NCBI GenBank assembly: GCA_001872725.1
Contig: MNWR01000017.1
Location: forward strand, 1,982 to 65,981
DNA length: 64,000 bases
From: Proteobacteria bacterium CG1_02_64_396
Lineage (GTDB): Bacteria > Pseudomonadota > MNWR01 > CG1-02-64-396
Direction: 5' to 3'
Position numbers and translations under genes: made by a program. The notes beneath the pieces were generated by a model that saw only the letters and a program-made list of their open reading frames with translations, was not told where the DNA came from and ran no database searches. Position 1 is the first letter of the stretch. Every line of letters begins with the position of its first letter. This document shows, piece by piece, positions 14,923-56,689 of this stretch.

Positions 14923-15104
14923 CTAAGGAAGCGCTGATTTAATAGCGCTTCCGAGCGGCCCAGGGATGGGCCGCCAAAATCAGGAACGTAAGCGACCGAT
15001 TTTGAAAGCGCAGCCAAAACGACGCCGCCTCAAGGCGCCTACTTTTGGTTTTGGCGAAGCGTGCCGATTCATAGGCAGGAGGCCTTGAATCAGCATTTCC
15101 CTAA
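14923..15104. mobile_element. MITE-like repeat family 1, copy B
   Basis: The left end is CTAAGGAAGCGCTGATTTAATAGCGCTTCC and the right end is CTTGAATCAGCATTTCCCTAA. The shared core is GGCCCAGGGATGGGCCGCCAAAATCAGGAACGTAAG. Confidence 0.75.
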
Positions 15105-27163: not shown

Positions 27164-27636
27164 CTAAGGAAGCGCCGATTGATTCGGCGTTTCCCTGGGA
27201 GTATGTCGGACCTGAGGTTCGGCCACGGGGTGGCCTCCTGCGCGCAATGGCCCCTGCGTCGGTCCAGGCCTAACCTGAAAACCCCCATCCCGGCGTCATC
27301 CCAGAGCAGGCGGGGATCCAGCAGTCGCGGGGGCGACAGCGTTGGGGGGAATGGGGACGCGGCGGGGGGGGACGCAATCGCGCCGGGGGCGGCGCTCCTA
27401 CCGCGTCGCATCAGGGCAATCGCGCCGGGGGCGGCGCTCCTACCGCGTCGCATCAGGGCAATCGCGCCGGGGGCGGCGCTCCTACCGCGTCGCATCAGAG
27501 CAATCGCGCCGGGGGCGGCGGCTCCTACCTCGTCGCATCAGAGCAATCGCGCCGGGGGCGGCGCTCCTACCGCGTCGCATCAGGGTGCCTACTAAGCTTC
27601 ATGGCGGAGTTTTGCCTTGAATCAGCGCTTCCCTAA
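27164..27636. mobile_element. MITE-like repeat family 1, copy D (expanded, 473 bp)
   Basis: The termini are CTAAGGAAGCGCCGATTGATTCGGCG and CCTTGAATCAGCGCTTCCCTAA. It contains a five-unit 42-bp tandem array. Confidence 0.7.
27374..27584. repeat. Tandem repeat, 42 bp x 5 (one unit 43 bp)
   Basis: The unit is GCAATCGCGCCGGGGGCGGCGCTCCTACCGCGTCGCATCAGG. Each unit carries a GCGCCG-GGGG-CGGCGC hairpin. There are no spacers. Confidence 0.9.
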
Positions 27637-27795
27637 AAAATGCCCTCCCGTCGTGAGGGATGGGTCGACGGGAGGGCAAAGTGGGGGCGGCGGCGATGGT
27701 GGGGGGATGCCGCCACCCCCGGTCGACCCATCGAATCCGTCGACGGGCCGATCTATGGCTTTCGTATGTAAGGGCGCCGCTGGGGGCAATCCGCT

Positions 27796-28242
27796 TCAAA
27801 TCCCCCGCAGCCGGGTCAACCGCTTTCCAACCTCGTCGGCCACGCTGCGGGTGACGGTCAGCACGACCCCCAGCGCCGTGGCATGGGCGCTCACCATCAA
27901 CAGCAGGTAGGAATCCAAACACGGCACCTTGATACAGACCGTGGTGAGGGAGCCCGATTGCAGGGTGAGCAGATCGAGTTGTTCGGCCGACGCTGCGTCG
28001 GTGTGCACCGCACTGGCGGTGGCCTCGCCGATGGCGATCAACGAGCTGGCCAGGGCCGCCATCTTGCCGATTTGGTCGCTGGTCACCCCAACCGAACACA
28101 GGTTGAAACCGTCGGGCGAGCAGAGCACCGCCGACCCTTTGTGGGTCAACCGCTGCGGCAACCCCTCCAGGGCGGGCTGAACAAAACGGCCAAAGGCGAC
28201 GGAATCGGTTTTCCACCCCAGAACTGGGCCGGACGAACTCAT
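27796..28242 (-). CDS. Roadblock/LC7 (MglB-like) domain protein
   Basis: 148 aa with the pattern GSAVLCSPDGFNL...LLTLQSGSLTTVCIKV typical of the Roadblock fold. The start overlaps the GTPase stop (ATGA). Confidence 0.7.
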   Translation of the reverse strand: MSSSGPVLGWKTDSVAFGRFVQPALEGLPQRLTHKGSAVLCSPDGFNLCSVGVTSDQIGKMAALASSLIAIGEATASAVHTDAASAEQLDLLTLQSGSLTTVCIKVPCLDSYLLLMVSAHATALGVVLTVTRSVADEVGKRLTRLRGI

Positions 28243-28823
28243 GCACTGATCTCCAAATCGGGAACACTGATGGCCGAAAGGGCCATGGCCACGGCGGAGC
28301 GCACATCCTCGGGGCGTCGAGGATCGGCGCAGATCAAAGGGGCCAAGGGGTTGAACTGGGCAAGCACGTTGTAAAAACCTTCAAGCTGCTCCTCCTCCAC
28401 CGGCTCGGTCATACGGGTCACCGCCACCGAGAGAACCTCGGGGGCGATGTAGCGGCGCAGAACCTCAAGCCAGATTCCCAAGTCGCGTTCGGCCTGGGGG
28501 GCATCGCCGTAGACCCACAACACCACGGCAACGGCGCTGGGCAGGAAGGTTTGCCACATGGCGTCGAAGCGGTATTGCCCCGGTAGACCGAAGAGGGCAA
28601 TACGCTGTTTTTCATCGAGCTTGATCTCACCGTAATCGAACCCGACGGTGGTCCTGGCTTTTTCGGGGTTGGCCTTGTGGCGCTCGGCGGTGAAAACGTC
28701 GGTATCGACCACGGCAATATCTGAAATCGCACGCAGGGCGGTGGTTTTGCCCACCCCAAAGGGGCCGACGAAGACAACCCGGCGCTCGTGGTTATGGCCT
28801 AACTGCACGGTATCGATGGTCAT
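28239..28823 (-). CDS. MglA-like small Ras-superfamily GTPase (COG2229-type ATP/GTP-binding protein)
   Basis: 194 aa with P-loop GPFGVGKTT and switch II LFGLPGQYRF (PGQ as in MglA). There is no canonical NKxD. It has ATGA overlaps with both neighbours. Confidence 0.75.
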   Translation of the reverse strand: MTIDTVQLGHNHERRVVFVGPFGVGKTTALRAISDIAVVDTDVFTAERHKANPEKARTTVGFDYGEIKLDEKQRIALFGLPGQYRFDAMWQTFLPSAVAVVLWVYGDAPQAERDLGIWLEVLRRYIAPEVLSVAVTRMTEPVEEEQLEGFYNVLAQFNPLAPLICADPRRPEDVRSAVAMALSAISVPDLEISA

Positions 28824-29569
28824 TGGAATTTGTTGAGAAAGCGTTGGAAGAGACTGGGACCGGCCGAGTCGGAACGCACCACGCCCCCGGAGGCCCCGCC
28901 CCCATCCGAGCGAATCTGCAACGTGCCCCCCTTATGGGTGTCGGCGAGCAGGCGGTCGAGCATCTGGGCATCCCCCACGAATGCGGTCAGCTCCTCGTGC
29001 GGGACATACCCCATCAGCATTTTTCGGGTGGCCGCCAGCAAACGCATTTGCGGGTCTTGGTAGCGGCTGAGATTCGGCCAGCGTTTCAGCCGTAGGTAGT
29101 TCCCCCTCCACGGCGCCCCTTGGCGCTCCGGGAGGCTCTGCGCCGGGGGGGTATCGCCCCGACTCTGAACCTGCGGCTCCGACGGGGCGGCCTGCGCACG
29201 GGGGAGGTGCTGCGTTGGGGCAGCGGTTTGGCGGCCCACATCGACACGCATCCTCAGTAGGTGCTTCACAATGAGGGTCACCCCGTTCGCGGTGACCGGT
29301 TGTTGGCAAAACACCCAGCTGCCGTCGGGAAGATCGGTCAGCTTGTGGGCCAACGCGATCTTCCTTGCCTTAAATCCCGCTGAAGGCAAAGCCTCCAGCG
29401 CCTGCCCCAGGGCCATAGTCGCATCGATCACGATCCACCCCGCCCCTTGCGGCTCACTCACCCAAACCCAAACCCCGGCGCACTGTTCCAGCAAGGTTTT
29501 GAACCGCTGGACCTGGGCCGACTCCGGATGCGGTGTCCATAAGGTTTGAATGGATGATGGGGCTGTCAT
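28820..29569 (-). CDS. Hypothetical protein (two domains joined by a Pro/Gln-rich linker)
   Basis: 249 aa with no motif I recognise. It is translationally coupled to the GTPase gene and occupies the position that DUF742/CvnC holds in conservons. Confidence 0.55.
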   Translation of the reverse strand: MTAPSSIQTLWTPHPESAQVQRFKTLLEQCAGVWVWVSEPQGAGWIVIDATMALGQALEALPSAGFKARKIALAHKLTDLPDGSWVFCQQPVTANGVTLIVKHLLRMRVDVGRQTAAPTQHLPRAQAAPSEPQVQSRGDTPPAQSLPERQGAPWRGNYLRLKRWPNLSRYQDPQMRLLAATRKMLMGYVPHEELTAFVGDAQMLDRLLADTHKGGTLQIRSDGGGASGGVVRSDSAGPSLFQRFLNKFQ

Positions 29570-29581
29570 GTCGCTTTCCCT

Positions 29582-29962
29582 TTACCGACAAGCCTTGGCT
29601 ACATCATCGAGCGCACGGGGCAGAACCACCGAAAGCAACATGCCCAGATTGGTCTTGGTGGTATCGAGCATGATCCCCTGCAACATCTCCTTGCTGTGGC
29701 GGATGATGAGCATGGTCTTGTCGGTTTCGAGGTCGAGCATGTAGAAGCGGTTGAGCGGGGGGAATTCAGTAGCCCTGTAGGCCTCTTCAAGCGCGTCGGT
29801 GATCTGGTTGAACAGGGCGACAGCGGCGGGCTGTTGGTTGATACCGGCCAACGACAGACCGTCGCGACGATTCCAAATATCGGTGGTGATGAGCCCCTCT
29901 TTAAGGAAGGACCGTACCGATTCGACGGATCGATCGAGGGCCGCAATATCGATATCGTTCAT
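29582..29962 (-). CDS. Small Roadblock/LC7-like protein (paralog 1)
   Basis: 126 aa, with DIWNRRDGLSLAG...MLIIRH...LGMLLSVVLPRA. By eye it is about 40-45% identical to the 30108..30491 product. Confidence 0.55.
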   Translation of the reverse strand: MNDIDIAALDRSVESVRSFLKEGLITTDIWNRRDGLSLAGINQQPAAVALFNQITDALEEAYRATEFPPLNRFYMLDLETDKTMLIIRHSKEMLQGIMLDTTKTNLGMLLSVVLPRALDDVAKACR

Positions 29963-29988
29963 GGCTCAAGGGCTCCTATTGGGCGGGG

Positions 29989-30102
29989 TAAAGGAAGCGC
30001 TGATTGAATGGCGCTTCCGAGCGGTCCACAGATGGGCCGCCAAAATCAGGAACGTAAGCGTGCCGATTCAGGGCAGGAGCCTTGAATCGGCACTTCCCTA
30101 AA
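29989..30102. mobile_element. MITE-like repeat family 1, copy E (minimal 114-bp form, no hairpin module)
   Basis: TAAAGGAAGCGCTGATTGAATGGCGCTTCC...CCTTGAATCGGCACTTCCCTAAAG. It lies between the two paralogous small genes. Confidence 0.75.
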
Positions 30103-30107
30103 GAGAT

Positions 30108-30491
30108 TCAGCGGCGGGCCTTGGCGACCATGGCAAGAGCGCGGGGCACGACCACCGCAAGCAGCACGCCAAGGTTCACCTTCTTGCTGTTCAGCAACAG
30201 ACCTTGCTGAATGTCCTCGCCATGAAGAATCACCATGGCAATGTGGTCATGATCGAGATCGCTCAGGTAATAGCGGCTCAGCCCGGGGAACCCGGAATGG
30301 TGCAGGGTCTCGCGCAACTCCCCGGTGATTCGGGTAAACAACGCCACTGCGGGCGACTGTCCGTAATGCCCACCCAGTGAGAGGCCATCGGGCGTCCAGA
30401 GATCGGTGGCGATAAGGGCATCCTTGAGCAGCGATTTCAGCTCCTCGATGCAAGCGTCCAATTGGGCGATATCGATTTGGATGTCCTTCAT
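30108..30491 (-). CDS. Small Roadblock/LC7-like protein (paralog 2)
   Basis: 127 aa, with DLWTPDGLSLGG...MVILHG...LGVLLAVVVPRA. Confidence 0.55.
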   Translation of the reverse strand: MKDIQIDIAQLDACIEELKSLLKDALIATDLWTPDGLSLGGHYGQSPAVALFTRITGELRETLHHSGFPGLSRYYLSDLDHDHIAMVILHGEDIQQGLLLNSKKVNLGVLLAVVVPRALAMVAKARR

Positions 30492-30933
30492 ACGCGGGTG
30501 CCTTTCCGATCATTCGGGGTGCTATGGGGTGCGACCGTCAACAACGGTCGAGTGCGCCGGAATTCGTCGATGCGTTTGGTATGGATGAACGCTGCCGACG
30601 TGGGGGAATGCTAAGAATCGAACCGCCCCGCCAACATTCGTACGAATACCTATTACCCTCTCCCCGCCGGGAAAATCCCCACCCCCCTCCGATCAAGCCG
30701 CCCGACACAGCGGCCATGGCCGCTGGACGACCTCATGGCCACTCAAACGCCTCGAAATCCGCTGGCGCCGACTACGTAGAAATACGTATTGCGCCGCCAC
30801 GCCACCGCCCGGCAGTCTTCCCCCCAACGTGATCGGAACGTATTCAACCGCGCGCACGCACGAGAACCGCCAAGGCCCCCCGCCCAGCCGAGGCGATCGG
30901 CCCAATCCTTTTCCCATGGAGGGTTTAGAACCC

Positions 30934-33900
30934 ATGCCCGCTGTTGTGACCGACCCTGCGCAGCCTGCCTCGGGCGTTCTTCCGGACGACACCTCGTTCC
31001 GCCGTCTGGTGGAAAACTCGCCCGACAACATCATCCGTTACGACACCGACGGACGGGTCTGCTACCTGAATCGAAGGCTGGCCGATTTGTTGGGGATAGA
31101 TCCCAAGGCGCATTTCGGCAAACGGATCGCCGAGATCTGGCCGGATGGACGGTATGCCGCCCTGGAGCGGGCGGTGCGGCTGGCCGCTCAAAGCGGCGAG
31201 GAATCGACCCTTGAGATCGACCACAAGGTTGGCGCGCAACACTGGGTCTATTCCGAAATTCGGGTGGTGGCCGAACGGGATGAAACGGGGGGCATCGTCG
31301 GGGTGTTGGCTTTTGGCCGGGATATCTCCGCCCCCAACCCGACCCGCTGGCGGCTGCACCATCTACTCGAAAAGATGCCCGGCATCGTCTGCGTTCTGCG
31401 CCGCTCGCCCGAGGGGCACGACAGCCTCCCTTACGTCAGTCCGGGGATCGAACCCCTCTTCGACCTCGGCGCCGAGGCGGTCCGTGAGGATGCAACGCCG
31501 TTGTACGCACGGATCCACCCCGACGACCGCCCCCTGCTGGTCGACGCCCTCACCGAGTCGCTCCAATCCCTGGCCCCTTTTCAGCTCGAATTGCGTGTCC
31601 ACGAAGCGCGCCAAGCCGAACGCTGGGTCGAGCTGCGGGCGTTGCCAACCCGAGAGGCGGACGGGGCATTCCTGTGGTACGGCATCTTGCTCGACATCAC
31701 CGAGCGCAAACGGATGAAGGGGGCGCTGGAGCGGCGCGAACGCGAATTTCGCACCCTGGCCGAGAACAACCCCGATCCCATCTTCCGCTACGACCGGGAG
31801 GGGCGGCGTCTGTACGCCAACGCGGCGGCATGCCGGATCGCGGGGCGTCCCGCCGAGACGCTGCTGGGCAAAACGCCCGAAGACGGCGCCTTACTGAACG
31901 AGGGGGAGGCGGTCAAGCTGGCGCGGGCCATCGATGGGGTGGTGCACAGTGGCACCGAGGGGCGCCTGGATCTGCACATCCCCGATGTCGGCGGTCATGG
32001 GCAAGATTTCGACGCCCTGTTGGTTCCCGAGCGGGGTCCGGGGGGGGCGGTGGAAACGGTGCTGTGCATCGGTCGCAACATCACCACCTTGCGCGAGTCC
32101 GAGCGCCAGGCGACCCGTTTTTTTACCAACATGCCGGGCTTTGCCTACACCCTGCACCGCCCCCATCAGGGGCCGCCCCGCCTCACCTACGCCAGCCCCG
32201 GCATCGAAGCGCTTACCGGCCTGAAACCGGAAGAGGTTCGCGCCGACATGGCGCCGCTGCTCGCCCTGGCCCACCCCGACGACCGATCCCGCCTCGAAGC
32301 GGCCATGGCCGAATCGGCCCGGTCCCCCGGCTCTTTTCACATTGAGGTCCGCGTGCTGCATCCGGGCCAGCCGGAGCGGTGGATCGAGGTCCGTTCCAAA
32401 GCCGAACCCCAGAGCGACGGCAGCGCCGCATGGCACGGCATCATGCTCGACATTACGCCGCGCAAAGCGGCCCAACGACAGATGGAGTTGCTGAAGCGGG
32501 CCATTGAGCAATCGGGGGAGGCGCTGTTCGTCAACGACGAGACGCTGCGCTTCGTCGAGGTCAACGAGACCGCCTGTCGCGCCCTCGGCTACACCCGCGA
32601 GGAGCTCCTCGGACTCACCCCCCTCGACATCGACCCCGACGTCACCCGTGAGGCCTGCATGGCCATGATGCGCACGGACAACCATTCCACCCAAACCCTC
32701 GAAACCCGTCACCGCACCAAAGAGGGGCGCCTCTTCCCGGTCGAGTTGAATTGCAGCGTCTTCCTCCACGATGGGGTGTGGCTCCACCTTGCCATGGCAC
32801 GCGACATCGGCGAACGCAAGGCGGCCCAGCAGCGCATGGCGTTGTTGGAGCGAGCCATCGACCAGTCGAGCGAAGCCTTTTTTTTAAGCGACGAGCATCT
32901 GCGTTTCGTCGAGGTCAACGAGGCGGCCTGCCGCGCCCTCGGCTACACCCGCGAAGAGTTGCTGGGCATGACCCCCCCCGACATCGACCCCGACATCACC
33001 CTTGAAGCCTGCTTCGCGCTCCGAGACGAGTACCAAAAAGGGTCCAAAACCTTCGAAACCCGCCATCGCAACAAAGAGGGGCATATCTTCCCGGTCGAGG
33101 TGATCGGCTCGGCTTTTATGCACGAGGGGAAGCGGTACGGCCTCACCATGGTGCGCGACATCCGCGAGCGTAAAGACCTTCAAGATCGTCTGGCCCGCAG
33201 CGAGCAGGCGTTCCGCTCCCTGACCGAAAACCTGCCCGACCACGTGGCGCGCTGGGACTGTGAGGGGCGCTACCTCTACATCAACCCCGCCCTGGAACGG
33301 CTGGTGGGAATCTCCAACGCGGCGGTGGTGGGCAAGCGGCCCTGCGAACTGGTCCCGGAAGCGGCAGAGGCCGACGGCAACATCGCCAGGGTGGTGACCC
33401 GTCGCGCACCCGAGCTGCTGACACGGGTCGCCATACCCGCGCCGGATGGCGGCTTGCGTCTGCACGATCTCAAGATGGTGCCGGAATTCGGGCCGGATGG
33501 GTCGGTGGTCAGCGTGCTGGGGTTGGGGCGCGACATGACCGAGCTCTACCGTCTGCAAGAGGAGGTCTCGGCTCGCGAGCAGGATTTTCGCAGCCTGGCC
33601 GAGAGCTCCCCCGACCACATCATCCGCTACGACCTGGAGCACCGCATTCGCTACCTCAATCGGCAGCTCATGCAACTGCTTGGGGTGAATCGTTTGGAGG
33701 AGGTGATCGGCAAACGTCCCGACGAGGTCTGGACCGACGGTCGCTTTTCCATCCTTAGCCAGGCCACCAACCGCGCCGTGGCACGGGGTAAGCTGCTCAC
33801 CCTGGAGCTACCCGTCCCCGCTGAAAACGGGTTGAAATATCATCAGATCATCGTCGTGCCGGAACGGGACGAACACGGCGCCCCGATCAGCACCCTCGTC

Positions 33901-35040
33901 TTCGGGCGCGACATCACCGCCATCCGCGAAACCGAGCGCCGCCTGCAACATTTCATCAACACCCTGCCCGGTTTGGCGTTCGCCCTGCGTATGACCCCCG
34001 ATGGCCACAGGAGTATGCCCTTCGCCAGCCCCGGCACCTTGAACCTCGGTGGCCTGACTCCCGAGGAGGTGCGCGACGATGCGGCGATCCTGTTCGATCT
34101 GATCCACCCCGACGACCGACCGCTCGTCGATCGGGCCATCGCCGCATCGGCCCAGACCTTGGGTCCGCTCTACGTCGAATTCCGCATCTGCCGTTCGGGG
34201 TTGCCCGACACTTGGGTCGAGTGTCGCTCCCTGCCCGACTTGCAACCCGACGGCGCCACCCTTTGGCACGGCATCATGCTCGACATCGACGCCCGCAAGC
34301 AGGCCGAGGCGCAGGCCCGAGCGGGGCTGGAGGAGTCCTCTCGCTTGCAGCGTCTACAAACCGCCAATGAAATGGCCACCCTTCTGGCCCACGAGATCAA
34401 TCAGCCGCTGGCCGCCATCGCCGCCTACGCCGAGGCCAGCCTGAAACAACTGAGCCGTCCCGGATCGATCCCCCATCGTCTGACCACCAACCTTGAAAAA
34501 ATCGGCCAGCAGGCTTTGCGGGCGGGCGACAGCATCCGCCACATGCGCAGCTTCATCCGTCGCGGCCACATCGACCCGGCCCCCATGAACCTGAGGACAT
34601 CCCTTAGCCGGGTCTGCGACCTGATCGCCTCCTATCCCCTGGGCGACGACATCCGGCTGGCGGTCGAGATCGAGGGGAGGCTTGTGCCGGTGTTGGGGGT
34701 GGAGGTTCAGGTAGAGCAGGTGCTGCTCAACCTGCTGCGCAATGCCTACGATGCCATTCACGGCTCGGGGGTGGCGCAGGGGACGATCCGGATACGCATC
34801 CGGCAGACCGAGCCGATGGTGCAGGTGACGGTTCAGGACAGCGGTCCCGGGGTCGACGCCCCGACCGCCGCACGACTGTTCGAGCCGTTTGCCAGCACCA
34901 AGGCGCACGGACTGGGGATGGGGCTGCGCATCAGCCGGGGTCTGATCGAGGCCCACGGCGGGCAACTCTGGGTCGAACCGCGCACCCCCGGCGGCTGTTT
35001 TCATTTCACCTTGCCGATGGTTCCCACCGATGCCGACTGA
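30934..35040 (+). CDS. Multi-PAS (about 9 PAS/PAC units) cytoplasmic sensor histidine kinase
   Basis: ORF 30829..35040. ATG 30934 has GGAGGG 10 nt upstream. WHGI(M/L)LDIT PAC signatures recur. It has H-box LAHEINQPLAAI and an ATPase domain (DSGPGV, GLGMGL). Confidence 0.9.
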   Translation: MPAVVTDPAQPASGVLPDDTSFRRLVENSPDNIIRYDTDGRVCYLNRRLADLLGIDPKAHFGKRIAEIWPDGRYAALERAVRLAAQSGEESTLEIDHKVGAQHWVYSEIRVVAERDETGGIVGVLAFGRDISAPNPTRWRLHHLLEKMPGIVCVLRRSPEGHDSLPYVSPGIEPLFDLGAEAVREDATPLYARIHPDDRPLLVDALTESLQSLAPFQLELRVHEARQAERWVELRALPTREADGAFLWYGILLDITERKRMKGALERREREFRTLAENNPDPIFRYDREGRRLYANAAACRIAGRPAETLLGKTPEDGALLNEGEAVKLARAIDGVVHSGTEGRLDLHIPDVGGHGQDFDALLVPERGPGGAVETVLCIGRNITTLRESERQATRFFTNMPGFAYTLHRPHQGPPRLTYASPGIEALTGLKPEEVRADMAPLLALAHPDDRSRLEAAMAESARSPGSFHIEVRVLHPGQPERWIEVRSKAEPQSDGSAAWHGIMLDITPRKAAQRQMELLKRAIEQSGEALFVNDETLRFVEVNETACRALGYTREELLGLTPLDIDPDVTREACMAMMRTDNHSTQTLETRHRTKEGRLFPVELNCSVFLHDGVWLHLAMARDIGERKAAQQRMALLERAIDQSSEAFFLSDEHLRFVEVNEAACRALGYTREELLGMTPPDIDPDITLEACFALRDEYQKGSKTFETRHRNKEGHIFPVEVIGSAFMHEGKRYGLTMVRDIRERKDLQDRLARSEQAFRSLTENLPDHVARWDCEGRYLYINPALERLVGISNAAVVGKRPCELVPEAAEADGNIARVVTRRAPELLTRVAIPAPDGGLRLHDLKMVPEFGPDGSVVSVLGLGRDMTELYRLQEEVSAREQDFRSLAESSPDHIIRYDLEHRIRYLNRQLMQLLGVNRLEEVIGKRPDEVWTDGRFSILSQATNRAVARGKLLTLELPVPAENGLKYHQIIVVPERDEHGAPISTLVFGRDITAIRETERRLQHFINTLPGLAFALRMTPDGHRSMPFASPGTLNLGGLTPEEVRDDAAILFDLIHPDDRPLVDRAIAASAQTLGPLYVEFRICRSGLPDTWVECRSLPDLQPDGATLWHGIMLDIDARKQAEAQARAGLEESSRLQRLQTANEMATLLAHEINQPLAAIAAYAEASLKQLSRPGSIPHRLTTNLEKIGQQALRAGDSIRHMRSFIRRGHIDPAPMNLRTSLSRVCDLIASYPLGDDIRLAVEIEGRLVPVLGVEVQVEQVLLNLLRNAYDAIHGSGVAQGTIRIRIRQTEPMVQVTVQDSGPGVDAPTAARLFEPFASTKAHGLGMGLRISRGLIEAHGGQLWVEPRTPGGCFHFTLPMVPTDAD

Positions 35041-35638
35041 ACCCTTGATTTACGTCGTGGACGACGACGACCCCCTGCGCGACGCCCTGTGCCAACTGCT
35101 CGAAATGGAGGGATTCGTGGTGCGGGACTTCGCCGACGGCCCCTCATTTTTGGCCCATGTTCAACCCGACGATACGGGCTGCCTGTTGCTGGATGTGGCC
35201 ATGCCGGGGATGGATGGCATAAGGGTCCAGCGCATCCTCAAGGAGCGGGGGTGCGATATCCCCATCCTCTTTCTCAGCGGCCACGGCGACATCCCCATGG
35301 CGGTGGAGGCGGTGCACGAGGGGGCGCTGGATTTTCTTGAAAAACCGGTCCCCGGCTTGGTGCTGATCGCACAGGTGCGCCGCGCCCTGACCTCGGATCG
35401 AAAACAACGCGTCACCCAGGCCGAAGCCCAAAAGGCGCGGCAGAGACTCGGCCTGCTCAGCCCGCGAGAACGCGAGGTCTTCGACCAGGTGGTGGAGGGG
35501 CTGTCCAACAAGGAGGTCGCCTTGCGGTTGGGCATCAGCCACCGCACGGTGGAGGTTCACCGCAACAACCTGATGCGCAAATTGCAGGCCGATAGTCTGG
35601 CGGATCTCGTCAAACTGGCGGTGCTTGGCCAAGGCTGA
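35030..35638 (+). CDS. FixJ/LuxR-family response regulator (REC + LuxR HTH)
   Basis: It has VVDDDD...LLDVAMPGMDG and a C-terminal LSPREREVF...SNKEVALRLGISHRTVEVHR. It overlaps the kinase stop by 11 nt. Confidence 0.9.
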   Translation: MPTEPLIYVVDDDDPLRDALCQLLEMEGFVVRDFADGPSFLAHVQPDDTGCLLLDVAMPGMDGIRVQRILKERGCDIPILFLSGHGDIPMAVEAVHEGALDFLEKPVPGLVLIAQVRRALTSDRKQRVTQAEAQKARQRLGLLSPREREVFDQVVEGLSNKEVALRLGISHRTVEVHRNNLMRKLQADSLADLVKLAVLGQG

Positions 35639-35683: not shown

Positions 35684-38600
35684 TCAAACCCGGTTCGGCT
35701 TTGGCTTCGGCGCCGTGTAGTCGCCCGCCAAGTGGTATCGATTTTTGCCCAGCGCCTTGGCGCGGTACATGGCCAGGTCGGCGGCTTGGATCAATGCAGG
35801 TCCGGTGTCGCCGTCGCCGGGATAAAACGCAACGCCGATGCTGGCGGTTAGATGTTGCTCCCCCACCTCGGTGGGGATCGGTTGGGCCAAGGCGACCAGG
35901 ATTTTCTCGGCGACCTGTTGCCCCCCGAGCCCCCCTCGACCTCCCCCAACAACACGGTGAACTCGTCCCCCCCCAGGCGGCAGACGGTGTCGCTTTGGCG
36001 CACGATGCCGGTCAGTCGCCGTGCGACCTCGATCAGCACCTCGTCGCCAACCCGGTGGCCAAGGCGATCGTTGATCCCCTTGAAACCGTCCAGATCGAGA
36101 AAGAGCAGGGCGAAGGGCTCCGCGCTGCGCCGGGTGCGCTGCATCGCCTGTTCAAGCCGGTCGAGAAAAAGCCCCCGGTTGGGCAGACCGGTCAGGTGGT
36201 CGCGGTGGGCCATACGGTGCAAGGTCTCTTCGCGCGCCTTGGCCTGGGTGATGTCGGTGAAGATCCCGACATAGTGGGTGACCGCTCCGCTCTCCCCCCG
36301 CACGGCGTCGATCACCAGGTGTTTGGGGTACTCCCGCCCATCCTTGCGCCGGTCCCAGATCTCCCCCTCCCACCGCCCCTCCTCCAGCAGGGCACGCCAC
36401 ATCTTCTGGTAGAAGGTCGCGTCATGCCTGCCTGAGCGCATGATCCGCGGGTTTTGGCCCACGACCTCTTCGCGGCGGTAGCCGGTAACCCGCTCCCAGG
36501 CGGCATTGACGTCGACGATGTTGGCATCACCATCGGTAATCACCACCGCCTCGCTGGTCCGCTCGAAAACCTTGGCTGCCAGAATCGCCTGATCGACCCG
36601 CTTGCGCTGACTCAAATCGGAGGCGAAGGCGACGTAACCCTCCAGCCGCCCCTCCTGGTGCAACGGCGAAATACTCAGCAGCAGCTCGACCGTATGGCCT
36701 TGTCGGTGCCAGGCGGTCATCTCGATCTCGCGCTGCGGAATTTGGTCGGGGTGGCGGCGCCAGTACCGCAAGAGCCCCCAGTGTTCCTTGGCCGTATACC
36801 GAATCGCCCGCTTCCCCAGCACCTCATGGCGGCGATAGCCCAGGATGCGCAGCATGGCGTCGTTGACCTCGACGATGCGCAGCCCCGGATCAACCACCAC
36901 GAACCCCTCGTTGCTGGTGGCGATGATGTTGCGGTAGCGGGCCTCGGCCTGTTCCAACGCCTGGGCCATCTCTTTCTGGGTGGTGATGTCCTCGATCAAA
37001 GCCAACACCACCCCCTCCCCCTCCTCGCGCAGCCTACGCACCACCAGCCTGGCCCACACGGTACGACCGTCCCGGCCCAGGTACCTTTTTTCAAGGGTGT
37101 AATCGTCGATCTCCCCGGCAATGAAACGGCGGTAGAGCTCGAAATTCATGGCACTGTCTTCGGGGTGGGTGATCGCCAGGAAGGTCCAGCCCACCATCTG
37201 CTGCGGGGTGTAGCCGAGCATTCCGGCAAAGGCGGGGTTCACTGCCAAAAAGCGCCCATCCCGGGCCGTCACCACCATGCCGATGCCGCTTTGTTCGAAA
37301 ACGGCGCGGAAGCGGTTTTCGCTGTGGGCCAGATCGCGGGTGGCGTCGTGGCGGGCCACCACCGCCCCGATCAACCCGGCATGGGCCTGAAGCGCCTCGA
37401 TCTCCCCGGCGCGCCAACGGCGGGGGGCACCACTGGCCAGGCCGAGGAAGCCCCACCACCCTTGTGCGGTGGCGATGGGGACCAGCAGCAGCGATTCGAT
37501 CCCATGGGGTTCGAGCACCGCCCACTCCGAGGGGGTGAAGTGGATCCGGTCGCGGATCAACACCCCTTCGTGGCACAGCGCCCCCTTCCACCAGCGCAGC
37601 CCTAAGCCATCCAGGGCGACATGGCGGCTCGACATCCCCTCGCCCATGCGCCAGAAGTGCATCAAGGGGGGAGCCTCGCTGTAGAGGTAAACCTGGGGAG
37701 CCTCGGCCGCCTGCCCCAGGTGTTCGAGCACCACGGCCACCCTCGCGCCCCAAGGGTCGGCCAGCAGGAATTGCTCGGCGGTGAAGGCCAGACAGGCGAG
37801 CAACTCGTCCTTGCGGTGCAGCTCCCCCTCCAGGCTCAGTCGCCGGGTGATGTCGGTCCCGACCCCCCCCAACCGCGCACCCCCCTCCCGGTCGCCGTCG
37901 AGCGGAAAACGGACCGTCAGGTAGGTGCGGCGCCCGCCGTTGTGGCCCAGCACCTCTTCGAACACCTGGGGCGATCCGGCCGCCAGGGTTTGCCGGTCGT
38001 GCTCCTCCAACACCTGCCACACCGATTGAGACCACAACTGACGGTCCACCTTACCGATCAACGCCCCCGGTTCGATTCCCGCCTGTTCGGCAAGCACCCG
38101 ATTGCCGAGCAGATACCTCCCCTGTTCGTCCTTCAAAAAGACCATGATCGGGCTGTGTTCCAGGATCGTGACCAGCAGATCCTCCTGCTCCTGGGCGCGG
38201 GCCCGCTCACGTCCCAAATGCTCGACCAGAACATCGAAGGCCCGCCCCATCCGGGCCAGCTCGTCCTGCCCCGACAGCTTGAGTTGCACCGAATAATCAC
38301 CCGCCGCCAACTGCGCCTCGGCGGAGCGAAGCAGGTTCATACGTGGGGCGACGGCGCGGTGGAGCAACCACCACATCCCCCAACCGAGCAGCAACAAGGG
38401 GATCGATCCGTACAACACCTGGCGTTCAACCTCGGACAACACCGTGCCACGTACCGTGCTTAGATCCTCGACCACCAGCAGCCGTCCCACGCTCGAATCG
38501 CCGAGGGAAACCGCCAGAGCACCCAACAGATAGGGGGAGGAGAACCGGGTTTGCAGAAGATCGGGACCGAGGGGAGGAAACGCGGTTGAGGGTACCGGCA

Positions 38601-38940
38601 ACGCCGCCTCGATCCGCTGACCGAGCAAGGGGGTGTGGAGCGACAGCAGGATGCGCCCCGAGGGATCGACCACCACCGCCTCGCGCCAACGCGACGAGCC
38701 GGCCATCCCTTTGAGGTTCCATTCGAGCAGACGCAAAGGGGCGACCTGGGGACCGGCCTGGTGGAGTTCGTCGTTCAGGGCGGCTAAATCGCGCAGCAGG
38801 GCGGTTTGGGAATCATACTCAAGTCGGTCGAGGGCCGACTGCCTGAACACAATCAGGGCCACCACCATCACCAGAAGCAGACCCCCGTTCAAGAACAGGG
38901 GCAACGTCCAACGCATGGGCCATCGGGTTAGTAGGTTCAT
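35684..38940 (-). pseudogene. TM-HAMP-PAS-GAF-PAS(x3)-GGDEF protein, reading frame broken inside the GGDEF domain
   Basis: ORF 35848..38985 ends just after RLGGDEFTVLLGEVEGG. The rest of the domain (QVAEKILVALAQPIPTEVGEQHLTASIGVAFYP...AMYRAK) continues in another frame (ORF 35684..35890). The switch lies in C/G homopolymer runs at 35921-35946. Confidence 0.75.
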
Positions 38941-39214
38941 AGCACCCCCCATAGGACTTGGGAGCACCGCGCACCACACTCTCAAGCCCCATTCCCCAGG
39001 TCTGGCAGGGTTCGAACATCAACCCCGCACCAAAATCCCGAGTTTAATACTCGGAATTGGAGTCTGCGCCGCATGAGAACGACTTGCAATATTTTGGTGG
39101 CTTAGATCACACAACAGAGGGGACTGGAGGCGGCCGCCCAAGGGGAGGCCTGTCCCCGAATGGGGCCACCTCCCGGGGACCCGACGAGGGGCGCACGGGA
39201 TCACCCCCCTCAAC

Positions 39215-56526: not shown

Positions 56527-56689
56527 TTAGTGGAAGCGCTGATTGAATCGCGCTTCCGAGCAGCCCAGGGATGGGCCGCCAAAATCAGGAACGTAAGTAG
56601 GAGGCGACCCCGTCGCCGAAGCTCTGCTTTTGGTTTTTGGCAAGCGTCGCTGATTCAAGACAGGATGCCTTTAATCAGCGCTTCCTTAG
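56527..56689. mobile_element. MITE-like repeat family 1, copy G (one hairpin module)
   Basis: TTAGTGGAAGCGCTGATTGAATCGCGCTTCC ... GTAGGAGGCGACCCCGTCGCCGAAG ... TTAATCAGCGCTTCCTTAGG. Confidence 0.8.

Follow-up and report, generated by a model that had tools for sequence, protein, structure and literature searches.

We analyzed a five-gene operon in a 64,000-nucleotide stretch of DNA, hereafter the window, from Proteobacteria bacterium CG1_02_64_396 (assembly GCA_001872725.1, contig MNWR01000017.1, positions 1,982 to 65,981 of the forward strand). The operon encodes a small Ras-like GTPase of the MglA/CvnD family, three proteins of known or predicted Roadblock type, and a protein, Y249, that matches no Pfam family. 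Its genes lie on the minus strand and are, in order of transcription, those of R127 (127 amino acids [aa]; 30108-30491), R126 (126 aa; 29582-29962), Y249 (249 aa; 28820-29569), the small GTPase (194 aa; 28239-28823), and R148 (148 aa; 27796-28242). The operon is probably a divergent variant of the computationally described Group 3 MglA systems and not a new kind of system.

The original prediction, made from the sequence alone, had placed five minus-strand open reading frames (ORFs) here and had read the last four as tightly coupled. All five were confirmed, as was the coupling. By inspection, the Y249 gene is preceded by a 12-nt gap with a AGGGAAAG ribosome-binding site, and ATGA stop/start overlaps join the Y249 gene to the GTPase gene (28820-28823) and the GTPase gene to the R148 gene (28239-28242), while a 145-nt spacer separates the R127 gene from the R126 gene. 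Homologous loci, referred to below by number, were collected from gene neighborhoods and from a scan of species-representative genomes with an R126 alignment and were analyzed by phmmer. Homologs of each operon gene occur in ~35 other loci (E = 1e-20 to 1e-70) with their linkage kept, and the ORFs are therefore real genes and not chance reading frames. The closest relative of the window is locus L048.

The GTPase and its Roadblock partners

The 194-aa protein is a single G domain that passes the threshold of the Pfam family ATP_bind_1 (PF03029; 33.7 bits against a cut-off of 27, E = 4.4e-8), with weaker Pfam matches to Roc, Arf, and Ras. CvnD, the GTPase of the actinobacterial conservons, belongs to the same PF03029 family. 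In a sequence search of the PDB, the nearest solved relatives were Rab proteins and MglA. The family alignment displays a G1/P-loop (GPFGVGKTT), a switch I motif (TTVGFDYG), a G3/switch II motif (LPGQxRF, with LPGQYRF in the window), and a G5 motif (ADPR) in which D and R are invariant. The G4 motif is deviant, AVTR(M/L) in the family and AVTRM in the window, with no Lys and no conserved Asp. The residue preceding the TT of switch I is Arg in the window and L048 only and is Thr, His, or Gln elsewhere. Judged from these motifs, the protein is an MglA/CvnD-family P-loop GTPase with a catalytic-type PGQ switch II.

Taken alone, R148 gives a weak match to Pfam Robl_LC7 (E = 0.048) and a match to the Roadblock structure 3kye (1.7e-4). 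A family profile of 23 sequences matches Roadblock structures in the PDB more clearly (9jue, 5e-8; 7f8m, 5e-6; 3kye, 8e-6) and also reaches CvnB5 (3leq, 1.3e-3), while Robl_LC7 is touched by 19 of the 23 members. The same profile aligned by hhalign to an annotated Comamonas roadblock protein with a probability of 97% (E = 9e-11). By these profile comparisons, R148 is classed as an MglB-type Roadblock/LC7 protein, and it bears a conserved N-terminal extension.

In two proteobacterial metagenome-assembled genomes (MAGs) without a Y gene (L025, 9111-10520; L032, 8891-10516), the R148-type protein has a ~340-aa acidic repeat extension. These extensions carry repeated (A/S/V)WPD motifs that recall a near-invariant WPN motif of Y249, and WPD/WPN may be a short docking motif. 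The possibility that the long N-terminal extension of the L025 protein is a fused Y249 was ruled out.

R126 and R127 are clear paralogs (50% identity, E = 6e-41), as had been proposed from their sequences. Neither gave a meaningful sequence match in Pfam, NCBIfam, or the PDB, profile search included. None of 23 R126 family members matches Pfam Robl_LC7, and R126 could not be detectably related by sequence to R148 or to the second MglB-like genes that Comamonas and Neisseria carry. An AlphaFold2 model of R126, built with 23 homologs, has a predicted local distance difference test score (pLDDT) of 87.9 and the topology alpha-beta-beta-alpha-beta-beta-beta-alpha. All of the top 50 Foldseek matches of this model have the Roadblock fold (TM score 0.57-0.77, E = 1e-6 to 6e-5). 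Leading the list, at TM scores of 0.66-0.77 and E values of ~1e-6, are the Asgard Roadblock protein 9jue, MglB of Myxococcus and Thermus (6izw, 6hjm, 3t1r, and 1j3w), and LAMTOR proteins; C-terminal domains of Rag proteins are also among the 50. A residue pattern had led the original prediction to guess at Roadblock proteins, and the match of the R126 model to MglB/Roadblock structures bears that guess out. On the strength of the model, R126 and R127 adopt a Roadblock fold without detectable sequence similarity to other Roadblock proteins. The list of parts proposed earlier, one MglA/CvnD-type GTPase with three Roadblock-fold proteins, was thus right.

Clustered at 90% identity, the R126 family amounts to 22 clusters among 5.8 billion proteins, and two R126-type genes were found only in the window and L048. 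Between these two loci the genes are one-to-one orthologs (59% identity for R127 and 69% for R126, versus ~50% across paralogs). The R127/R126 duplication therefore predates the split of the window and L048 lineages and is old and retained. This Roadblock family, invisible to Pfam and duplicated here, is a new element.

In Aminicenantes UBA647 (L038, 7290-8375), a receiver domain is fused with DUF4388/PATAN and R126-type Roadblock domains in a single 361-aa protein, whose gene adjoins those of a histidine kinase and a response regulator. This fusion ties the cryptic R126 Roadblock family to PATAN-type two-component signaling.

Y249 and the relationship to Group 3 MglA systems

Y249 had been described as a two-domain partner of unknown type, with the reservation that it might turn out to be a DUF742 protein. 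No meaningful match was found in Pfam, NCBIfam, or the PDB, profile included, and Pfam remained null in 83 family members. The family is rare: clustering at 90% identity left 9 clusters among 5.8 billion proteins, and a set of 1.84 billion contained 97 representatives at the 50% level. Two candidate identities were rejected. As a DUF742/CvnC protein, Y249 failed in Pfam (null in 9 and then in 83 members) and in hhalign, which gave a probability of ~1% against a single CvnC and 1.2% against a profile of 34 DUF742 sequences; what did align was a short stretch over the helix-turn-helix and wing, consistent only with a generic winged-helix resemblance. The description of an unknown partner that is not DUF742 therefore holds. 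As a PATAN/DUF4388 protein, Y249 was likewise null in hhalign and Pfam, while a Thermus control matched PF14332.

The AlphaFold2 model of Y249 (pLDDT 76 overall and >88 in the folded parts) predicts an alpha/beta domain at about residues 8-109, a disordered, Pro/Gln-rich linker at residues 110-150, and a winged-helix-like domain at about residues 155-222, in which a strand, three helices, and a strand occupy residues 158-220. In Foldseek, the first domain matches receiver domains with probabilities of 0.97-1.0 and a target-normalized TM score of ~0.5. Of the hallmarks of true receivers, the acidic pair, the Thr/Ser, and the Lys are absent from it; D49, at a phospho-acceptor-like position at the end of a beta-strand, is conserved in 76% of the 83 family members. 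With this signature missing, pseudo-receiver is the most apt term for the N-terminal domain. Read from the sequence, the winged-helix region is net positive in charge, and its predicted third helix is acidic/hydrophobic (consensus LLADA) and not basic or polar.

Y249 ends in a basic amphipathic helix (residues 240-249, LFQRFLNKFQ; modeled as a helix at 240-247). The last ~11 residues are basic and amphipathic in nearly all members, with the consensus GL(L/I/V)(K/R)RL(L/I)x(K/R)F, and one member ends in GFLKRLFAKFS. The mean hydrophobic moment of the tail is 0.66, versus a background of 0.29, with a net charge of +3, and in 81% of members the tail falls within the top 5% of the protein's own windows. 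We take the helix to resemble a membrane-targeting sequence of the MinD type. These properties suggest that the tail is a membrane tether or a site of partner docking.

The order R126-Y-GTPase-R148 is found in ~25 betaproteobacterial loci with unrelated flanking genes, including those of Vitreoscilla, Comamonas badia, Leptothrix, Rubrivivax, Rhodoferax, Hydrogenophaga, Ottowia, and Rhodocyclaceae. Co-conservation of the genes, which the original prediction had made a test of its proposal, is thereby established for a four-gene core. Burkholderiales or Rhodocyclaceae account for most of the 30 genome loci, and the others belong to Nocardioidaceae, Granulicoccus, a Chloroflexi MAG, and Aminicenantes. 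Other arrangements exist. In L013 and L022 the order is Y-GTPase-R148-R126, Nocardioidaceae and Granulicoccus have GTPase-R148-R126 without Y, and L025 and L032 have R126-GTPase-R148 without Y, where R148 carries the long acidic N-terminal extension. In L008, the middle gene (258 aa) is not detectably related to Y249, and the last gene is R148-like. The invariant core is thus the GTPase with one member each of two unrelated Roadblock families. This invariant pairing speaks for a need for both Roadblock families, the simplest reading being that they belong to one regulatory platform.

In the three-gene Nocardioides-type loci L026 (5732-6670) and L034 (5728-6660), a same-orientation ORF lies immediately upstream, in the position that Y249 occupies in proteobacteria, and has by eye a LysR-type helix-turn-helix-like N terminus. 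On a Ralstonia solanacearum megaplasmid (L040, 4578-8666), a related GTPase belongs to a different operon, in which it follows a 124-aa protein without a Pfam match and precedes a 436-aa P-loop ATPase/dual-specificity phosphatase fusion and then four small hypothetical proteins, apparently a further GTPase module that has yet to be described.

The original prediction had presented the operon as novel, and this claim does not survive comparison with the literature. Group 3 MglA systems of beta- and gammaproteobacteria were cataloged by computer by Wuichet and Søgaard-Andersen in 2014 (PMC4316618). In that description, a protein without a Pfam match, with a receiver-like N terminus, a variable linker, and a winged-helix C terminus, precedes a GTPase whose G4 lacks Lys and whose G5 reads "DAR," and MglB homologs follow, one or two in number (PMC4316618). 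Nor is a 1:3 ratio of GTPase to Roadblock proteins new, since Snodgrassella Group 3 systems have one GTPase with three MglB genes (PMC11112851). The operon agrees with Group 3 in the architecture of Y249, its position before the GTPase, and its lack of a Pfam match in the 83 members; in a GTPase with a deviant G4 without Lys and a DxR-type G5 (ADPR); in coupled Roadblock genes, recognized by profile for R148 and by predicted fold only for R126/R127; and in hosts that are mainly betaproteobacteria. It differs in the extra R126-type Roadblock family, which here stands first in the operon, is duplicated, and has no detectable sequence similarity to other MglBs. Examples of Group 3 systems are those of Comamonas, Delftia, Leptothrix, Neisseria, and Xanthomonas.

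Direct comparison with such systems points the same way. The Y profile aligned by hhalign over 206 columns (E = 2.6e-5) to a Comamonas odontotermitis protein, the hypothetical one encoded ahead of the GTPase in a "hypothetical-GTPase-roadblock" operon. It also aligned in register to two fragments of the Neisseria gonorrhoeae counterpart, which ends in GLLQRLMKKLLGS. By BLAST score, the best matches of the Comamonas GTPase among the references compared were members of the window's family. In a crude neighbor-joining tree, the Comamonas Group 3-type GTPase is nearest the window family at 28% identity, and a partial Neisseria sequence clusters elsewhere. The N. gonorrhoeae module itself (L046, 2284-4953, in a 2.17-Mb chromosome-sized record filed as a plasmid) looks degraded, with the upstream protein split into ORFs of 209 and 105 aa and a GTPase ORF that lacks the P-loop region.

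In the published table, Leptothrix cholodnii Lcho_2393 appears as "DUF>MglA>"; its GTPase has 207 aa, and no MglB is given (PMC4316618). In our Leptothrix locus, L013, a 207-aa GTPase ORF is followed by R148- and R126-type genes. From the matching length of the GTPase, Lcho_2393 is likely the L013 system; if so, the 2014 survey already included the sub-branch but overlooked its Roadblock partners. More generally, annotation by sequence fails to recognize two Roadblock-fold partners in one sub-branch, and censuses that score such GTPases as lacking MglB probably undercount. Group 3 MglA systems occur widely among beta- and gammaproteobacteria, including Neisseria, Xanthomonas, and Stenotrophomonas. 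Literature searches found no biochemical study of any Group 3 MglA system. Carriers of the cassette that are in culture are Vitreoscilla filiformis, Comamonas badia DSM 17552, and Granulicoccus phenolivorans DSM 17626; Leptothrix cholodnii is probably another. What is new here is modest: a Roadblock-fold family without a sequence signature, a retained duplication, a three-gene actinobacterial form, and a candidate membrane-targeting helix on the adaptor.

Operons of the PATAN (DUF4388)-GTPase-Roadblock type, such as those on Thermus plasmids, resemble the window operon in having an adaptor gene, an overlapping GTPase gene, and a Roadblock gene, with TRxD and DPR motifs in the GTPase. They differ in that Y249 has no DUF4388 similarity. 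On Thermus thermophilus plasmid pTthSNM1-7b (L039, 4324-7297), a protoglobin-domain gene and then a GGDEF-like ORF come directly after such a DUF4388-GTPase-Roadblock operon.

The proposed switch and its alternatives

A cytoplasmic small-G-protein switch, of Group 3 MglA type and from a divergent sub-branch of that group, is the probable product of the locus. The GTPase would cycle between GTP and GDP states. A Roadblock platform of R148 and R126-type subunits would have the role of GTPase-activating protein (GAP), that of a nucleotide-state-specific scaffold, or both, by analogy with MglB, MglB/MglC, and MfpD. Roadblock dimers would bind the switch regions and stimulate hydrolysis, as with MglB and MfpD (PMC9769811), and in most species R126-type subunits would form homodimers, while here R127 would pair with R126 in a heterodimer comparable to MglB/MglC and LAMTOR2/3. 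Y249, presumably made in a fixed ratio to the GTPase through translational coupling, would be the adaptor that links the switch to an output or a location. Its receiver-like domain, in which the phospho-acceptor signature is missing, is for this reason most likely a protein-binding pseudo-receiver. The winged helix could bind the GTPase as an exchange factor, as MfpC does (PMC11343762), or bind DNA, and the C-terminal helix could tether the complex to the membrane in the fashion of MinD or dock on the GTPase. The pairing of two Roadblock families, kept even in the three-gene actinobacterial form, and the adaptor tail offer testable hypotheses for how the switch is assembled and localized.

The best experimental precedent for the putative GAP and exchange-factor roles is the mycobacterial mfp operon, which encodes the GTPase MfpB, the Roadblock GAP MfpD (PMC9769811), and the DUF742 exchange factor MfpC (PMC11343762). 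With conservons and mfp, the window operon shares a PF03029 GTPase, a deviant G4, a DxR-type G5, a Roadblock regulator, and a small helix-turn-helix-like partner encoded beside the GTPase. Y249 differs from the partners in those systems by its additional pseudo-receiver domain and amphipathic tail.

Several points weigh against assignment of the locus to a Group 3 switch. With no Asp in G4, guanine specificity is presumptive. The link between Y249 and Group 3 is moderate, with an hhalign probability of 75% against a single sequence, and phmmer/HMMER found no link of the Y family to canonical Group 3 proteins; the receiver-like assignment likewise has a weak Foldseek E value of ~1e-2. Group 3 membership of the GTPase draws on motifs, operon architecture, and a crude neighbor-joining tree. 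Finally, the function of the sub-branch, the stoichiometry of the platform, and the heterodimer are inferred.

A transcriptional output, in which the winged helix of Y249 acts on promoters in a manner gated by the nucleotide state of the GTPase, is a tentative alternative that we consider possible. A DNA-binding output was proposed for Group 3 systems from the receiver-like and winged-helix-like architecture that Y249 shares (PMC4316618). The winged-helix region is net positive, and conserved palindromes lie upstream of the operon. The operon shares a divergent control region of 442 bp (30492-30933) with the gene of a multi-PAS histidine kinase (30934-35040, plus strand; Pfam), whose presence the original prediction had noted. 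The true start of the kinase is probably M36, at 30934, as read from the L048 ortholog and a public gene call in L042, and this start sets the length of the region at 442 bp. Two islands are conserved between this region and the L048 intergenic region (~801-810 in L048), and in these two loci only, namely, the palindrome ATTCGTACGAAT (30636-30647) and TACGTA-N4-TACGTA (30773-30788). The sequence TTCGTACGAA occurs once in the window, versus 0 expected; its other occurrences are confined to L048 and to copies of the window's own locus. Both motifs are candidate operators for a LuxR-type regulator or for Y249. The other evidence disfavors a transcriptional output. Upstream of 26 cassettes, the search for an operator-like motif common to them yielded sub-lineage motifs only; the predicted third helix (LLADA) is acidic/hydrophobic and neither basic nor polar; a conserved basic amphipathic tail would be unusual in a soluble transcription factor; and the fold-related DUF742 protein MfpC is an exchange factor and not a DNA binder (PMC11343762).

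A Ragulator-type platform is a less likely elaboration. Here, a Y249 pseudo-receiver scaffold, anchored to the inner membrane through its MinD-like amphipathic C-terminal helix, would assemble a hetero-oligomer of R148 and R127/R126 and would set the position and nucleotide state of the GTPase, with docking through WPN, an idea that comes from the repeated WPD motifs of R148 in loci without Y. The comparison with Rag/Ragulator, made in the original prediction from stoichiometry, stands as far as fold and stoichiometry are concerned. Several Roadblock subunits form a platform for small GTPases in both, and the R126 model reaches TM scores of ~0.65 against LAMTOR2/3 and the RagA/C C-terminal domains. 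The resemblance goes no further; there is no sequence relationship (R126 and LAMTOR are 17-20% identical), and the window GTPase is of the MglA/CvnD type and lacks a C-terminal Roadblock domain of its own. If the Y249 tail does bind membrane, Y249 would be an analog of lipid-anchored LAMTOR1.

The same parts could control polarity or type IV pilus motility, like MglA/MglB of Myxococcus, a role that we regard as rather improbable. Group 1 MglA/MglB of Myxococcus and Thermus also combine a Ras-like GTPase with Roadblock-fold dimers as GAP, and the R126 model superposes on MglB at a TM score of ~0.75. Relatives of the Group 1 system include the MglB paralog MglC, a second, divergent Roadblock protein that modulates the first, and the co-GAP RomY. 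In Snodgrassella, mutation of a Group 3 mglB altered gut colonization and pilus-type colony spreading (PMC11112851), and some Group 3 systems may act as such controllers. However, no pilus or motility genes are linked to the cassette in any locus examined, and the three-gene form has actinobacterial hosts, Nocardioides among them. Canonical features of Group 1 are an NKxD G4 and an intrinsic arginine finger (PMC4316618), and its module is linked to motility and polarity, whereas the window family has TR(M/L)x at G4, a different G5, no conserved arginine before switch I, and no motility context.

Coupling to two-component signaling in the manner of a conservon, with the PAS kinase phosphorylating D49 of Y249 or binding the Roadblock/GTPase complex as CvnA does, appears improbable. 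The adjacency of the divergent kinase is conserved in L048, where the neighbor is an ortholog with 57% identity, and D49 stands at the end of a beta-strand like a receiver phospho-acceptor. The kinase, however, has its own REC-LuxR/GerE response regulator immediately downstream (35030-35638, plus strand; Pfam), D49 is retained in only part of the family while the acidic pair, Thr/Ser, and Lys are missing, and Y249 is not DUF742. Most loci have no adjacent kinase; among those with readable neighbors, none besides L048 has a histidine kinase directly beside the cassette. A phmmer scan of all loci with the window's own kinase, PAS, GGDEF, and REC domains, which would miss divergent kinases, found kinase-core matches only in L010, L015, L020, and L038, and in the first three of these the kinase lies ~1 kb downstream on the opposite strand. 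The kinase link thus characterizes the sub-lineage formed by the window and L048, not the family, contrary to the conservon-like coupling suggested originally. Within this lineage, the PAS kinase and LuxR-type regulator are a possible input to the operon and may control its expression via the conserved palindromes of the promoter region.

An anti-phage defense or other mobile accessory cassette is very improbable, for while flanking genes vary between loci, PADLOC defense-system models gave only P-loop noise, no nuclease, toxin, or effector domains and no adjoining mobile-element genes were found, and the flanks are housekeeping-like in several loci. Rfam families gave no match. Least credible of all is a standard actinobacterial conservon (CvnA-D) acquired by a proteobacterium: a PF03029 GTPase, as in CvnD, and a Roadblock protein are present, but the operon has no DUF742, no CvnA-type kinase, two Roadblock families instead of one, and a gene order different from that of the Embleya conservon, in which, as a positive control, the kinase, Roadblock (Pfam, 5e-25), DUF742 (CvnC, 3e-37), and GTPase (6e-30) were all recovered. 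This identity was refuted by the DUF742 and kinase tests.

Repeats and neighboring genes

The R127/R126 spacer contains a strong hairpin formed by a repetitive extragenic palindromic (REP)-like element (30060-30101, minus strand), identified by folding and repeat count. The spacer folds at -62.8 kcal/mol (z = -6.1). The 22-nt core of the element, TTAGGGAAGYGCYGATTCAAGG, has 4 copies in the window, versus 0 expected, at 15083-15104, 27615-27636, 30080-30101, and 56668-56689, all on the minus strand and all intergenic. Three of the four have a palindromic hairpin extension; the copy at 27615, after the operon, is without the second arm. In L048, the spacer between the R127 and R126 orthologs is 39 nt long and has no REP-like element. 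The hairpin in the window is possibly an attenuator or an mRNA-stability element, and with such a strong structure in the 145-nt spacer the R127 gene may be expressed partly on its own.

The operon is closed by a terminator-like hairpin and T-run, CCCTCACGACGGGAGGG then CATTTTTTAG (27633-27659, minus strand). Between this terminator and a downstream GGDEF gene lies a tandem repeat (27374-27585) of a 42-bp GC-rich unit in 5 copies with 96% identity, which yields spurious repeat-peptide ORFs on both strands. Contig PFQI01000065 of MAG GCA_002793495.1 matches the window.

The operon had been placed in hydrogenase and cyclic di-GMP (c-di-GMP) surroundings, and GGDEF/EAL proteins and hydrogenase-subunit-like genes are indeed present in the wider neighborhood. 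The scan of all loci with the window's domains detected GGDEF proteins in L002, L028, and L029. GGDEF proteins flank the cassette in the window and in these three loci, and a recurrent link to c-di-GMP signaling is possible. Beyond the kinase and its response regulator, a 1045-aa PAS-GGDEF ORF (35848-38985, minus strand) stops at position 92 of the 161 positions of the GGDEF model. The remaining part of the GGDEF domain (…YPGDGDT…AMYRAK…) is found in another frame, in a 68-aa ORF at 35684-35890, and the frameshift marks either a pseudogene or an assembly error.

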